In this document: positions 1,003 to 64,000 of the stretch, piece after piece
How positions within the stretch are numbered: the stretch's first letter is position 1
Layout: each line of letters opens with the position of its first letter
From: Planctomycetota bacterium
GTDB taxonomy: Bacteria > Planctomycetota > B15-G4 > JADJEK01
DNA: 64,000 bases
Reading direction: 5' to 3'
Assembly (NCBI GenBank): GCA_044225365.1
Contig: JBGAIQ010000005.1
Location: 174,713 to 238,712 of the forward strand
Program-made: the position numbers and the translations under genes
Notes under the pieces: generated by a model
Told to the model about the DNA's origin: nothing
Database searches by the model: none
The model's input: only the letters and a program-made list of their open reading frames with translations

Positions 1003-3693
<2,691 letters not shown>

Positions 3694-3925
3694 CGGGATC
3701 GCTCTGGCTGTTCGAGTTCGAATGCGAAGGTGAGGCGAATCGCCCCGCGCTCACCCGCCGCTTCCCGATCGCCGGAAAGAGGCTGTGGAAAGATCGCGAT
3801 GTTAGCAGCTTGCGTCGGATGTGCGCCGCGTTTTGGCCCTGCGATCCAGGGGCCGAGAAGGGGGTTCGCCAAGCGCGACGGGACGAAAAAAGCGCGCGAA
3901 TTTTCTGCGGGTCGCGGTTACGACC

Positions 3926-4156
3926 CGGAGTCACCGGCGTATCAAGGGGCGAGTTTCGAAAAGCGCACTTCGGTGTGCCGGACGGGACTCCGAGAGAAGT
4001 GCCTGGGTTGCTGCGCCGAAGGCGTAAAACCTGAATCTCTCCTCCCAGTTCCCTGAACACCAGGTGATCCCAGGCCTCTCCCGTAACTGCCTACCTCCGG
4101 ACTCTCCAAAACCGATCCTCATCCCGAAGACCCCCGGTACAAGCTGGGGGTAGGCA
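3926..4156. ncRNA. candidate structured small RNA or leader (three consecutive stem-loops)
   Basis: Stems CGGAGTC/GACTCCG (3926-3992), GCCTGGG/CCCAGGC plus GAGAG/CTCTC (3992-4080) and TGCCTACCTCCGG/CTGGGGGTAGGCA (4088-4156) lie in the long intergenic region between divergent genes. No known family recognised. Confidence 0.4.
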
Positions 4157-4245
4157 CTTGCATGGCCGCCTGTTCGCGCCCGCGATCGGCGATGCCTTTG
4201 GACCATCCCGCACAGCGCGAGGAACATCGAGCCTCTCGCGCTACC

Positions 4246-5310
4246 ATGACGGCGATGAACTCTCCGCTCGATCCTCCACCTCCCGATCCTCGTTACTCGC
4301 GGCAAGTGCTCTATCGGCAGATCGGCCGCGCCGGTCAGGAGAGGCTCCGCACGGCGCGGATCGCGATCGTGGGCATCGGCGCTCTCGGAACCGTGGAGGC
4401 GACGATCCTTGCGCGCGCCGGAGTGGGAACCCTCCGCCTGATCGATCGGGATTTCGTCGAACTCTCGAACCTGCAGCGCCAGGTCCTCTTCGACGAGCAG
4501 GACGCGCGCACGGCGATGCCGAAGGCTGCCGCCGCCAAGCGACATCTGTCCGCGGCGAATTCGACGATCACGATCGACGATCGTTCGACCGAAGTGAACG
4601 CGGCGACGATCGAGTCCCTCCTCACGGACGTCGACGTAGTCGTCGACGGCGCGGACAACTTCGAAGTGCGCTACCTGGTGAACGATTTCTGCGTTCGAGC
4701 GAAGAAGCCCTGGGTCTACGCCGCCGCGGTCGGGACGACCGGGCTGCTCATGCCGATCCTGCCCGGAACGACACCCTGCCTACGCTGCGTCTTCGAGGAG
4801 CCACCTCCGGCGGGAACGGCGGCGACGTGCGACACGAGCGGAGTTCTCGGCTCGACGACTGCAACCGTCGGTGCGCTCGCCGCACTCGAAGCGATCAAAT
4901 TCGCGACTGGCCGAATCGACTCGATCCGCCGCGGCCTCCTCGAACTCGAGCTGTGGGACAATGAGATCCGCGACGTCGGTCTCGCCGGCCCTCGGGACGA
5001 TTGTCCGTGTTGTGCTCATCGCAATTTCCCGTTCCTCTCCACACGCGGTGGCGGCGCGGCGACGTCGCTCTGCGGTCGGGACGCGATCCAAGTCGTACCC
5101 ACGGCGGTCGGCGCCTTCGATTTCGAGAGCGTCCGAGCGCGACTCGCGAAGGCGTTTGCGGTCGTCGACAACGGCTTCCTCTTGCGCTTCCCGTTCGAGG
5201 GGCGTCAGGTCACGTTGTTCCGCGACGGCCGCGCGATCGTCCAGGGCTTGAACGGCATCGACGACGCCGCGCTCGCACGGTCGATCTACAGCCGCACCAT
5301 CGGGGCATGA
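4246..5310 (+). CDS. ThiF/MoeB-family (E1-like) adenylyltransferase
   Basis: RYSRQ, GIGALG, IDRDFVELSNLQRQ, DGADNFE, PCLRC and CPCC Zn motifs, C-terminal LCGRDAIQ extension. Start 4246 preferred over the ORF-track start 4162. Confidence 0.9.
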   Translation: MTAMNSPLDPPPPDPRYSRQVLYRQIGRAGQERLRTARIAIVGIGALGTVEATILARAGVGTLRLIDRDFVELSNLQRQVLFDEQDARTAMPKAAAAKRHLSAANSTITIDDRSTEVNAATIESLLTDVDVVVDGADNFEVRYLVNDFCVRAKKPWVYAAAVGTTGLLMPILPGTTPCLRCVFEEPPPAGTAATCDTSGVLGSTTATVGALAALEAIKFATGRIDSIRRGLLELELWDNEIRDVGLAGPRDDCPCCAHRNFPFLSTRGGGAATSLCGRDAIQVVPTAVGAFDFESVRARLAKAFAVVDNGFLLRFPFEGRQVTLFRDGRAIVQGLNGIDDAALARSIYSRTIGA

Positions 5311-60582: not shown

Positions 60583-61716
60583 GGACCGCCGGGCACGCCT
60601 CCTCGGACCGCCGGGCTCTGCCCGGCATCTTCTTCGTCCGCCTGGCCTTTTCGGGAACGTACCACCATGGGTCGGACAGCGCGTCGGGCGCGCACGGGGA
60701 GCTCCGTTCGACTCCGCGCGCGGCAGACCGCGCATGCTGCGCGAACGGACTCCCCGATGCGCTTCTGTCCCTTCGAGGGGAAGGGTTGTAGGACCCACTT
60801 TGAAATGGAACGAGGCGCCTTGCCTGGAGTGCCGCGGACGGCACCCCAGCCAAGGCTTTCCCCACGTGTCTTCGCGACGAACCTCATGGGGTAGGTAGGA
60901 ACGCGGTCACCTTGCGCGCCCGTAGCACGGTCATCTTTGAATTCGGCCCTTTTAGCGGGGTCTACCCTTTCGTCGGCGTGCACGGAAACGCGTCGATATG
61001 GGTCGGACCGCCGGGCTCTGCCCGGCATCTTTGGACTTCGGGAACGTACCACCGCGGATAGGACAGCTCGTCGGGCGCGCTCGGGGAGCTCCGTTCGACT
61101 CCGCGCGCGGAGTACCGCGCATGCTGCGCGAACGGACTCCCCGATGCGCTTCTGTCCCTTCGAGGGGAAGGGTCATGGAGGCCCACTTTGAAATGGATCG
61201 AGGCGCCTTGCCTGGAGTGCCGCGGACGGCACCCCAGCCAAGGCTTTCCCCACGTGTCTTCGCGACGAACCTTGTGGGGTAGGTAGGAACGCGGTCACCT
61301 TGCGCGCCCGTAGCACAGCCAGCTTTGAATTCGGCCCTTTTAGCGGGGTCTACCCTTGCGTCGGATCGGACCGCCGGGCTCTGCCCGGCATCTTCGGGAA
61401 CGTGCCACCGTGGATACGACAGCACGTCGGGCGCGCCCGGGGAGATCCGTTCGACTTTGCGCGCGGAGGACCGCGCGTGCTGCGCGAACGGACTCCCCGA
61501 TGCGCTTATGTCGCTTCGAGGGGAAAGGTCATGGAGGCCCACTTTGAAATGGCCCGAGGCGCATCGGATGGCACCCCAGCCAAGGCTTTCCCCACGTGTT
61601 TTCGCGACCCCCACCCACGAACTGGGAGGGTAGGTAGGAACGCAGTCACCTTGCGCGCCGGTAGCACGGTGGCCTTTGACGTCGGCCCGGATACCGGGGG
61701 CTGTCCTTTCGTCAGC
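60583..61716. repeat. tandem array of three structured 350-400 bp non-coding units, each starting with the REP GGACCGCCGGGCTCTGCCCGGCATCT
   Basis: REP starts at 60605, 61005 and 61368 (half copy at 60583). Units share long near-identical blocks such as GCGAACGGACTCCCCGATGCGCTT, CCCACTTTGAAATGG and GGCACCCCAGCCAAGGCTTTCCCCACGTGT. Confidence 0.92.
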
Positions 61717-62004
61717 GAGAATGGGATCGCTCAGCGCCCCGTTCGAGGGGAACCGTTCGCTCGACCTTGCGGGAGGGCCGGCGCTTCGAGTACTCTCCCG
61801 CCCGAGCGGCGCCGTGAATCCATCGGTGAAGCGCTCGGTTGGCATTCATTCGACTATGAAGGGCCTTGCCACCGTCGAAAATCCACGCCCCAACGCTGGG
61901 TTGCCGCCCGAGTCCTCGACGAACTGCTGGAGATCGCCGCTTCGCCACCGTCGCGTAGAGATTTCGAACCCCACACTCACGAACCGAACATGAAGGACAC
62001 CTCC

Positions 62005-63783
62005 ATGGCCGATGCGTCCCGTCGCGATTTCCTGAAAACCGTGAGCGTTGGAGCCGCTGCAACCAGCCTCGGCACGAGCTTCCTCGGATGCAGCTCGACC
62101 GCCGTCAGCTCGAGCCAGGACAGCGTCCGTCCCGCGGCCGGTGGACCCTACAACATCCTCTTCATCCTCACCGATCAGGAACGCTACTTCCGGCCCGGCG
62201 AGTTGCCGTCCGACTATCGGTTGCCCGCGCACGAGCGTTTGATGCGCAACGGAGTCGTCTTCGACAACCACCGCATCAATTCGTGCGTCTGCACTCCGTC
62301 TCGCTCGGTTCTCTACACCGGGCGCCACATCCAGCAGACGAAGATGTTCGACAATACGAATTTCCCCTGGATCTCGAGTCTATCGCCCGAAGTCCGCACC
62401 GTCGGGCACATGTTGCGAGACGCGGGTTATTACACGGCGTACAAGGGAAAATGGCATCTCACGAAGGAATTCGAGACCGTCAACGAACTCGGCTCGCCGC
62501 ACAAGATCTTCACGCAGGAAATGGAAGCGTACGGCTTCTCCGACTACTTCGGCGTCGGTGACATCATCGCGCACACCCAGGGTGGCTACCTGCACGACGG
62601 CGTCATTTCCTCGATGGCCGTGAGCTGGCTCCGAGGGAAGGGCTCCAGTCTGACTGCGGAGGGCAAGCCTTGGTTCCTCGCGGTGAATCTCGTCAATCCA
62701 CACGACGTGATGTTCTACAATTCCGATCAGCCCGGCGAGGAAGTTCAGAGCCGCAACATCCTCGGGCATATCGAGCGTGCACCGAAGCATCCCCTCTACG
62801 ATACGCAGTGGAAATTCGACTTGCCTGCGAGCCACGGCGAAAGGCTCGACGCTCCCGGCAGGCCGCGCGCGCACGCCGAGTTCCTCGCGTCGCACGATGC
62901 GCTCGTGGGGAACATCGCGAACGAGGAGCGACGCTGGCGCAGTCGCCACAATTACTATCTCAATTGTTTGCGCGACGTCGATCGCAACATCACGACGTTA
63001 CTGGATGAACTCGATGCGCAAGGTCTCGCGTCGAAGACGATCATCGTGATGACCGCCGATCACGGCGACCTGGACGGCGCGCATCAACTCCATGCGAAGG
63101 GCGCGACTTCCTATCGCGAGCAGAACCAAGTCCCCTTCATCGTAGTGCATCCGGGTCGCAAGGGCGGCGTGCGCTGCCGCAGCGTGACGTCTCACCTCGA
63201 TGTCGCGCCGACCCTGCTCGGATTCACGGACATCGCGCCCGAGCGACGTGCCGCGATCACCAAGGGCCTGCCCGGCAAGGACGTCTCGCCGCTGCTCAGT
63301 TCGCCCGAGAACGCTCCGATCGGTGCAGCCCGCGATGGCTCGCTGTTCTGCTTCAACATGTTCGCTTACATCGACGGCGACTTGATGAGCAAGGCCGTAA
63401 CGCTCCTGCGCGAGCCCGACGGCAAGCAGAAGTTGAAGGAATCGAATCTCAAGCCCGACCTCTCGAAGCGAGGCGCCATCCGAAGCGTCTTCGACGGTCG
63501 ATATCAGTTCACTCGCTACTTCTCGCCCAAGCAACACAACCGACCCGACTCGTTGGAGTCTCTCCTCGCGCACAATGACGTCGAGCTCTTCGACCTCGAA
63601 TCCGACCCTCACGAAGTCGACAACCTCGCGAAGGACCCGAAGAAGCACGGCGACGTTCTGTTGGCGATGAACAGCAAGCTCAACAACTTGGTGGACACCG
63701 AGGTCGGGGAAGACGTCGGACAAATGCTGCCCGGCGGACCGGACGCGGGCTGGGTTCTGACACCGGCGGCTCGCGACCTCTGA
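62005..63783 (+). CDS. Tat-exported, probably lipid-anchored formylglycine-dependent sulfatase
   Basis: SRRDFLK Tat motif, FLG-C, NILFILTDQ, CTPSRSVLYTG, KGKWHL, ADHG. Confidence 0.92.
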   Translation: MADASRRDFLKTVSVGAAATSLGTSFLGCSSTAVSSSQDSVRPAAGGPYNILFILTDQERYFRPGELPSDYRLPAHERLMRNGVVFDNHRINSCVCTPSRSVLYTGRHIQQTKMFDNTNFPWISSLSPEVRTVGHMLRDAGYYTAYKGKWHLTKEFETVNELGSPHKIFTQEMEAYGFSDYFGVGDIIAHTQGGYLHDGVISSMAVSWLRGKGSSLTAEGKPWFLAVNLVNPHDVMFYNSDQPGEEVQSRNILGHIERAPKHPLYDTQWKFDLPASHGERLDAPGRPRAHAEFLASHDALVGNIANEERRWRSRHNYYLNCLRDVDRNITTLLDELDAQGLASKTIIVMTADHGDLDGAHQLHAKGATSYREQNQVPFIVVHPGRKGGVRCRSVTSHLDVAPTLLGFTDIAPERRAAITKGLPGKDVSPLLSSPENAPIGAARDGSLFCFNMFAYIDGDLMSKAVTLLREPDGKQKLKESNLKPDLSKRGAIRSVFDGRYQFTRYFSPKQHNRPDSLESLLAHNDVELFDLESDPHEVDNLAKDPKKHGDVLLAMNSKLNNLVDTEVGEDVGQMLPGGPDAGWVLTPAARDL

Positions 63784-63806: not shown

Positions 63807-63863
63807 GATGCCGGGCGGAGCCCGGCGGTCCGGCTTGACGGCTTCAAGACGGTGCCGGGCGGA
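63807..63863 (-). repeat. one full REP (63807-63831) and the right half of a second REP (63853-63863)
   Basis: Minus strand reads GGACCGCCGGGCTCCGCCCGGCATC; TCCGCCCGGCA abuts the intron 3' end. Confidence 0.8.
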
Positions 63864-64000
63864 ATCGGGTAGACCAGGGCGGCGTTCCGCCCCGGCCCCC
63901 CTCAGATCCGGACGTGCCGATTTCCAGCATCCGGCTCTTCGCGATCAGGAGCTCGCGCCGGGACGGTAGACCGAGTGGACAATCTCCGCGCGAGGCAATG
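63864..64000 (-). mobile_element. 3' end of a group II intron (domains V and VI)
   Basis: Minus strand: DV GAGCCGGATGCTGGAAATCGGCACGTCCGGATC (63937-63905, AGC triad) and DVI GGGGGCCGGGGCGG-AACG-CCGCCCTGGTCT-A-CCC-GAT with bulged A and AY terminus. Confidence 0.92.
63945..64000 (-). CDS. C-terminal tip of the intron-encoded reverse transcriptase/maturase (partial)
   Basis: ...LPRAEIVHSVYRPGASS* ends 7 nt before DV; resembles the LPxxxIVHS end of endonuclease-less intron proteins. Confidence 0.7.
   Translation of the reverse strand, partial: LPRAEIVHSVYRPGASS

Follow-up and report, generated by a model that had tools for sequence, protein, structure and literature searches.

A group II intron at the end of a 64,000-nt stretch of planctomycete DNA (assembly GCA_044225365.1, contig JBGAIQ010000005.1, positions 174,713 to 238,712; G000:C40:174713-238712 in our numbering, hereafter the window) is inserted into a repetitive extragenic palindrome (REP), between the left arm of the hairpin and the first base of its loop. 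We consider it very likely that this is a recently active IIB-like intron of bacterial E/F type, encoding a protein without an endonuclease (En) domain, which retrohomes by base pairing into a species-specific REP family. A first-pass annotation of the window had proposed that the intron homes to an abundant extragenic REP family; the junctions, the REP counts and the intron-exon pairing support this, and mobility is what we infer from them.

Junctions of the intron and its REP target

The Rfam model for group II intron domains V and VI (RF00029) matched the minus strand of the window at 63864-63939 over its full length (model positions 1-77; 47.7 bits against a gathering threshold of 40, E-value 2.8e-06). 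The intron ends with ...CTACCCGAT, its last base being 63864, and is adjoined by TCCGCCCGGCA (63863-63853, minus strand), which consists of the REP loop TCC, the right arm GCCCGGC and an A, the T at 63863 being intron-binding site 3 (IBS3). On the same strand, 21 nt beyond this half, there is an intact REP, GGACCGCCGGGCTCCGCCCGGCATC, at 63831-63807, with the same orientation as the split one (predicted DNA hairpin with a 7-bp stem and a 3-nt loop, -9.4 kcal/mol, z -2.5). The annotation had described both the half REP and its intact neighbor, and both were confirmed in the sequence. Because the window stops at the end of its contig (238712), no more than the final 137 nt of the intron can be seen there (63864-64000, minus strand; intron positions 1892-2028 of 2028), with 100% identity to C77:14262-14398 on another contig of the same genome. 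They hold the tail of the open reading frame (ORF) for the reverse transcriptase (RT)/maturase, 18 codons and the stop (63945-64000, minus strand, mapped via the identical C77 copy), domain V (63905-63937, minus strand) with an AGC triad and the 5-nt terminal loop GAAAU, and domain VI (63864-63903, minus strand), a long helix with a bulged A seven nt from the 3' end and the terminus ...GAU, both domains being placed by the Rfam alignment and the last also by inspection of the sequence.

A blastn search of the genome (G000) found three intron pieces, each 100% identical, and no degenerate fragments, which suggests that the intron was active recently. The complete copy (C77:12371-14398, 2028 nt, GTGCG...CCCGAT) lies on a contig that is unbroken across both junctions and reads ...GGACCGCCGGGC|GTGCG...CCCGAT|TCCAGCCCGGC; given at greater length, its 5' exon ends ...GGTCGGACCGCCGGGC and its 3' exon starts TCCAGCCCGGCTCTT. 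The remaining piece, the first 79 nt of the intron, sits at the extreme end of contig C85, where the 5' exon ends ...GTGCGGACCGCCGGGC, i.e., GGACCGCCGGGC|GTGCG again, and three intact REPs in a regular array precede it. Thus, as the annotation had anticipated, the left REP arm stands directly before a GUGYG start at both assembled 5' junctions (C77 and C85). Both 3' exons begin TCC(A)GCCCGGC, and each pair of halves restores one natural REP variant (loops TCC and TCCA) with no base duplicated or lost. The insertion point common to the copies is GGACCGCCGGGC^TCY(A)GCCCGGC, that is, directly after the final base of the left stem arm and before the loop's first base, and the two assembled copies (2/2) sit at REPs in identical position and orientation. 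Since there is one orphan 5' end (C85) and one orphan 3' end (C40, the window), the simplest reading is that these two contig ends belong to one intron copy. The annotation's further expectation, that other copies share the junction, held at both assembled sites and in metagenome contigs with other flanks, described below.

The C77 copy has the ribozyme body of a mobile group II intron: its domain I matches RF02005 (intron positions 76-291; 108 bits against a gathering threshold of 49), it has the same RF00029 match as the window (47.7 bits, gathering 40), its 5' end GUGCG fits GUGYG, and its 3' end, ...CUACCCGAU, is of the AY type. Its ORF (L001:2869-4317, L001 being the C77 locus, in which 4399-4458 corresponds to C77:14399-14458) is uninterrupted by stops and encodes a protein of 482 residues (P0001) that matches the group II RT/maturase family TIGR04416 with 343.5 bits (cut-off 300), the match ending at residue 446 of 482. 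RVT_1 (129.1 bits, residues 122-361) was the sole family found in a Pfam search of P0001, which returned no En domain; the protein carries the YADD motif. Without the ORF the intron comprises 579 nt (2028 - 1449).

The target is a true REP: a short palindrome of high copy number, extragenic, lineage-specific, and with copies flanking a gene for a REP-associated tyrosine transposase (RAYT). The 6.53-Mb genome holds 176 matches to the pattern GGACCGCCGGGC-N3-4-GCCCGGC (81 forward, 95 reverse; reversed control, 0), and 20 related genomes of the same family or order have none; the left arm by itself is present 215 times. As DNA the REP folds into a 7-bp stem with a 3-4-nt loop (-9.4 kcal/mol), the loop beginning with TCT in 91 of the 176 copies and with TCC in 76. 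By crude coding calls based on GC content at third codon positions, which cover 66% of the genome, only 15 of 176 REP centers fall within coding sequence. REPs lie between convergent genes in 64 cases versus 14 between divergent ones, and of the 135 cases that allowed classification (41 did not), 99 have an upstream gene running in the same direction as the REP. The RAYT is an ORF of 221 residues (C76:107885-108550; L085:1192-1857) matching NF047646, the REP-associated tyrosine transposase family, with 85 bits (cut-off 80) and Y1_Tnp with 27.5 bits (cut-off 23), and it is flanked by seven copies of the same REP, two on one side and five on the other.

Beyond this assembly, the intron-bearing stretch is present in public sequencing data, in 20 runs belonging to 11 studies and sampled from bioreactors, sludge, wastewater and microbial mats; for four of these runs, each from a different study, we examined the Logan contigs. 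The intron contig of each of the four spans L001 2358/2359 to 4400/4401, namely the left REP arm (12-13 nt), the intron and TCC, with differing flanks beyond; these ends are where the flanks of separate copies should diverge in a de Bruijn graph. The loose ends include an extra 3' flank, GCCCGGCATTTT... (also given as GCCCGGCATTTTCTTGAGG...), and two extra 5' flanks, none of which was found in G000 when up to 2 mismatches were tolerated. Both junctions of the C77 copy are bridged by independent contigs, the 5' one by X1 record 5 (L001 2341-2388) and the 3' one by X1 record 8 (L001 4372-4600). The X1 contig depth was 37.8 for the intron and 14 for the 3' flank, ratios of this sort not being copy numbers. 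A joint from 2382 to 4433 in run X3 (13 foreign letters, side 26) we regarded as coming from another organism or repeat.

Proposed base pairing with the REP and the kind of intron

We located the exon-binding sites (EBS) in a domain I alignment of 30 related introns with placeable 5' ends, through covariation with their exons. EBS1 is the start of the terminal loop in the Rfam consensus hairpin after GCCGAC/GCCUUC, a fixed position that complements the 6-7 bases at the exon's end; averaged over 22 distinct intron/exon combinations, 5.6 of 6 positions are paired, compared with 2.7 for swapped exons. Here it reads GCCUAG (intron 218-223) opposite C.GGGC (-6 to -1), with five of six positions paired and four of them contiguous: G, C, C and U pair with C-1, G-2, G-3 and G-4, an A.C mismatch follows at -5, and the last G pairs with C-6. 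EBS2 is the variable stretch right after a conserved GAAAU, which forms helices of 6-8 bp with positions -15 to -8 in nine relatives (L004, L007, L009, L013, L023, L025, L026, L028 and L031); here GUCC (intron 194-197) pairs with GGAC at -12 to -9 over 4 bp. EBS3, the base after a conserved CGGRGUC, pairs with position +1 in 19 of 20 distinct combinations and is here A284, facing the loop T (A:U). The annotation had expected EBS1 and EBS2 to pair with the left arm of the REP: both were located by covariation and are complementary to it, and EBS3 likewise to the first loop base, the pairing itself being short (4 contiguous plus 1 for EBS1; 4 bp for EBS2).

The genome contains 213 sites of the form GGAC..C.GGGCT, of which 200 are REP left arms, so base pairing alone suffices to confine the intron to REPs. 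As the stem is palindromic and presents IBS1 on both strands, orientation is distinguished only by EBS2 and EBS3, and all intron copies seen have the orientation that these two predict.

Several other candidate guide sequences were rejected. A perfect 7-mer complement of the left arm, GCCCGGC at intron 83-89, lies in a conserved Rfam helix and shows no covariation in relatives; the EBS2 candidates GUGGUCU at 267-273 and UCCG inside the conserved CCGAAAU are likewise conserved parts of the model without covariation. The identity of intron nt 5-11 (GCCGGGC) to the REP arm we judged to be a chance effect of a conserved helix, relatives reading GCCAGG there. Three of the four metagenome runs have an intron with A>T at 224 and C>A at 226, just 3' to EBS1 (L001:2594 and 2596), and the change at 224 would allow one more pair, U.G, with G-7 in the REP arm.

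Judging by its sequence, the intron is an En-minus, IIB-like intron of the bacterial E/F type, and it is not of class IIC. We considered IIC because of the hairpin target, and excluded it because the hairpin is split by the intron rather than followed by it, and because of the RF02005 match, the position of EBS2 and the 5-nt loop of domain V. A complete stem-loop upstream of the insertion, a trait of IIC introns, is absent, since the left arm, 12-13 nt, is all that the 5' exons have in common, and they contain no hairpin. The 5-nt domain V loop is present in 20 of 20 aligned relatives. The annotation had named IIC introns as the precedent for a hairpin target, and this did not hold, the intron being IIB-like and reading the REP by base pairing.

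IIE and IIF introns are described as having a 5-nt terminal loop in domain V and 450-700 nt without the ORF (Nagy et al. 2013, PMC3753933), a range that includes the 579 nt found here. With class E/F introns such as Cl.be.I2, Pe.th.I2 and Ge.ur.I1 (PMC3753933; Toro & Martinez-Abarca 2013, PMC3552965) our intron shares the IIB-like ribozyme, the long domain VI and the 5-nt domain V loop, and also an intron-encoded protein of RT and X domains only with YADD, and EBS1 and EBS2 in domain Id. It differs in its target, as we found no REP hairpin loop described for these classes in the literature covered. The sequences nearest to P0001 were only 52-57% identical. That relatives occur in taxa with known F introns (Bryobacterales, an anammox genus and Thermodesulfobacteriota) is no more than a hint, and PDB sequence matches of the RT gave no discrimination between E and F. 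The middle base of the domain V triad faces an A and not the usual U (GAGCC...GGAUC; window 63905-63937, minus strand, and relatives), and in many relatives AAC replaces the AGC triad.

The relatives also choose repeated DNA. A sub-family of them sits in domain I of another intron class, with RF02003 directly following the inserted intron. Introns at L023, L025, L026, L031, L038, L041-L043, L046, L050 and L051, from several phyla, have the common 5' exon ...CTTGGCRTAGACSACCC, apparently a conserved piece of the RF02003 host intron. Nested arrays occur at L010:2468-6872 and L042 in an alphaproteobacterial metagenome-assembled genome, where an RF02005 intron is followed by 197 nt, a second RF02005 intron and then an RF02003 domain I. 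The closest relative, L004 (57% amino acid identity), sits directly after a perfect 14-nt palindrome, TCTCAGCGCTGAGA (L004:2488-2501), which has 8 copies in that organism's 6.3-Mb genome (G041; control 0). The two arms of this palindrome are the intron's IBS2 and IBS1, which means that EBS1 and EBS2 of the L004 intron are nearly complementary to each other.

Proposed retrohoming and alternative explanations

The route we propose is ordinary IIB-type recognition, in which EBS2 would pair with GGAC (-12 to -9), EBS1 with C.GGGC (-6 to -1) and EBS3 with the loop T (+1), EBS2 and EBS3 setting the orientation of insertion. As the protein has no En domain, cDNA synthesis would presumably be primed from nascent strands at replication forks, which is the route reported for other En-minus introns (PMC4424553). 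Because REPs lie outside genes, mostly downstream of co-oriented ones, an inserted copy should be harmless, transcribed by read-through and able to splice out, and in the precursor RNA the left arm, freed by the split of the hairpin, would be available for pairing with the EBS loops.

Several observations weigh against this proposal. The G000 assembly has only two occupied sites, or about 1% of some 200, and the C85 end is presumed to join the C40 end. The pairing is short, with an A.C mismatch (-5) and one G.U pair in EBS1 and only 4 bp in EBS2, and many relatives have 6-7 contiguous EBS1 pairs; for EBS2 the statistic over all relatives is weak (mean longest helix 5.07 versus 4.50 in controls, 40% of which have helices of at least 5 bp). 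All occupied sites have a TCC loop even though 91 of the 176 REP loops start with TCT, and this uniformity may reflect an extra constraint beyond the three pairings or shared ancestry of the copies. A folded single-stranded REP pairs its left arm with its right (-9.4 kcal/mol) and would compete with the EBS loops; since IBS1 would then be hidden, the intron would have to target the duplex form, unless the hairpin has a role of its own. Among 41 genomes the intron was seen in G000 alone, with no match in 40 related genomes at E <= 1e-60; near-identical copies were likewise not found among JGI metagenome contigs (best 54% amino acid identity), in the genome contigs collection (best 57%) or in plasmids (best 52%). 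A precise empty-site joint for the C77 locus (2370 to 4399) is not listed among the metagenome joints, and the evidence for further sites comes from short Logan contigs.

The alternative that survives best is structure-guided targeting as in IIC introns, in which the ribonucleoprotein would read the REP as a DNA hairpin and pairing would add only 3-4 bp beside the site. The IIC and IIC-attC introns, which insert behind terminator hairpins and behind or into attC stem-loops, resemble ours in being En-minus, mobile and directed to an abundant noncoding DNA hairpin with a short EBS1 pairing at the site (PMC4424553, PMC7923331), and our 4 contiguous EBS1 pairs fall within the 3-4 bp described for IIC (PMC7923331); the 14-nt palindrome of L004, with its 8 genome copies, and the TCC loop common to all occupied sites also point this way. 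However, IIC introns lack EBS2 and have the whole stem-loop upstream of IBS1, whereas here the hairpin is split at the 5' edge of its loop, the 5' exon has no complete stem-loop, and the intron belongs to RF02005 and complements its target through EBS2 and EBS3. The EBS2 position covaries in relatives, the domain V loop has the 5 nt of IIE/IIF introns (PMC3753933), pairing alone restricts targets to REPs (200/213), and the arms of the L004 palindrome are themselves IBS2 and IBS1. According to a 2021 paper (PMC7923331), no part played by upstream structures had been reported for IIB introns. We regard structure-guided targeting as unlikely.

Still less probable, in our view, is that the REP insertions are incidental, the true homing site lying elsewhere, perhaps in another host, and the REP copies having arisen by rare retrotransposition into a similar sequence. 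EBS1 falls short of a full match, the ideal IBS1 being YURGGY, and none of the 4 genome sites GGAC..YTRGGYT is a REP; the absence of the intron from 40 related genomes and the 52-57% identity of the closest RTs both suggest recent horizontal arrival. Against this, none of the three blastn hits in the assembly (0/3) is a copy or fragment at a non-REP site, the intron contigs in four metagenome studies all end in the REP left arm and TCC, and relatives at conserved repeated targets (L023, L025, L031 and L046) also show 4 contiguous plus 1 EBS1 pairs. An assembly artifact, or a REP-intron-REP composite moved by the RAYT transposase instead of by reverse splicing, might be suspected as intron and REPs are both repeats, the copy in the window is cut off by the contig end and the C77 copy has an inverted REP nearby as in a REPIN-like pair, but it is scarcely credible given that C77 is contiguous over both junctions, that independent X1 contigs bridge the 5' and 3' junctions, and that half-REP flanks restoring exactly one REP are a signature of reverse splicing and not of a transposase acting on whole hairpins.

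REP hairpins on single-stranded DNA are the substrate of RAYTs. A more speculative extension of retrohoming by base pairing, which we hold to be doubtful, is that the guide loops are adapted to the host REP/RAYT system and that the intron lineage exploits a target family which a domesticated transposase constantly renews. Hairpins extruded at replication forks would be the entry point, recognized by hairpin and pairing jointly; the variants at 224 and 226 would be ongoing tuning to the REP arm, and now and then the intron could be moved by REPIN-type mobilization.

In many genomes REPs are the most frequent repeats, and group II introns persist in bacteria by using sites of low harm, such as terminators, attC sites, insertion sequences (IS) and other introns. 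With a non-IIC intron that recognizes a REP through pairing and inserts in its loop, REPs, hitherto known chiefly as targets of IS, join the sites used by retroelements. The REP-targeting elements ISPpu9, ISPpu10, ISPsy8, ISPa11 and IS1397 likewise use REPs as abundant safe landing sites but are DNA transposons. The one intron-REP link that we found in the literature, with incomplete coverage of subscription journals, concerns Pseudomonas putida KT2440, for which a table of Tobes & Pareja 2006 (PMC1525189) has the row 'Group II intron 2/9'; that intron is REP-linked in only 2 of 9 copies and the row gives no junction, whereas here every copy seen is at the same REP nucleotide and a pairing mechanism can be named. 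The IS-homing introns E.c.I2, I3, I4 and I9 (Leclercq & Cordaux 2012, PMC3522654) also use repeated dispensable targets at low occupancy, 2-36% in several genomes as compared with ~1% here; the target differs in being a noncoding palindrome of 22-26 nt maintained by a RAYT rather than a transposase gene. With ~200 near-identical targets and ~1% occupancy, this natural system is suited to the study of limits on intron spread, of how an En-minus intron deals with a self-folding target, and of intron/REP/RAYT co-evolution, and it may offer a tool for multi-copy integration at neutral sites in the host.

Unoccupied REPs, associated repeats and neighboring genes

Three intact unoccupied REPs, all with the loop TCT and on the plus strand, lie at 60605-60629, 61005-61029 and 61368-61392 of the window, in agreement with the three that the annotation had placed at 60.6-61.4 kb. 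The first contains all bases for EBS pairing and is predicted to form a hairpin of -9.4 kcal/mol (z -3.9); the other two were identified by sequence match, as was a copy consisting of the left arm only at 60583-60594 (plus strand). These REPs stand at the boundaries of a repeat unit of ~340-360 nt that is often tandem, with a REP at each boundary (window 60630-61004, 61030-61367 and 61393-61720), and that recurs at C77:11656-12358 and on C13, C18, C73, C85 and other contigs. In a blastn search (42 hits, 80-100% identity), 16 copies of the ~340-nt unit, spread over 9 contigs, were 250 nt or longer. An Rfam search of the units gave no match, and the predicted RNA fold is stabler than shuffled sequences (plus strand, z -2.9; minus strand, z -4.7); the unit could be an element like a miniature inverted-repeat transposable element or a structured RNA. 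The C77 intron occupies the REP that closes one such unit.

A motif with 69 copies genome-wide, GGAGCGCCGGGCT, shares positions -8 to -1 and +1 with the REP left arm and differs in GGAC (IBS2); it may be a sister REP family, and the intron was not seen in copies of the motif. On C75, an open frame of 568 residues that has no REP closer than 3 kb contains a second, weaker Y1_Tnp match.

An inverted REP copy, of the variant with a TCCA loop, lies ~30 nt downstream of the split REP on C77 (within L001:4399-4458) and places the C77 intron in one arm of a REPIN-like inverted pair. A DUF2071 gene (L001:4578-5300) begins ~180 nt downstream of this intron copy. Upstream of the C85 piece there is an ORF of 1013 residues (L002:1732-4773) that is co-oriented with the intron and has no Pfam match. 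In the window, a sulfatase gene (PF00884, 132.7 bits; 61300-63783, plus strand) converges on the intron and ends 24 nt short of the intact REP.
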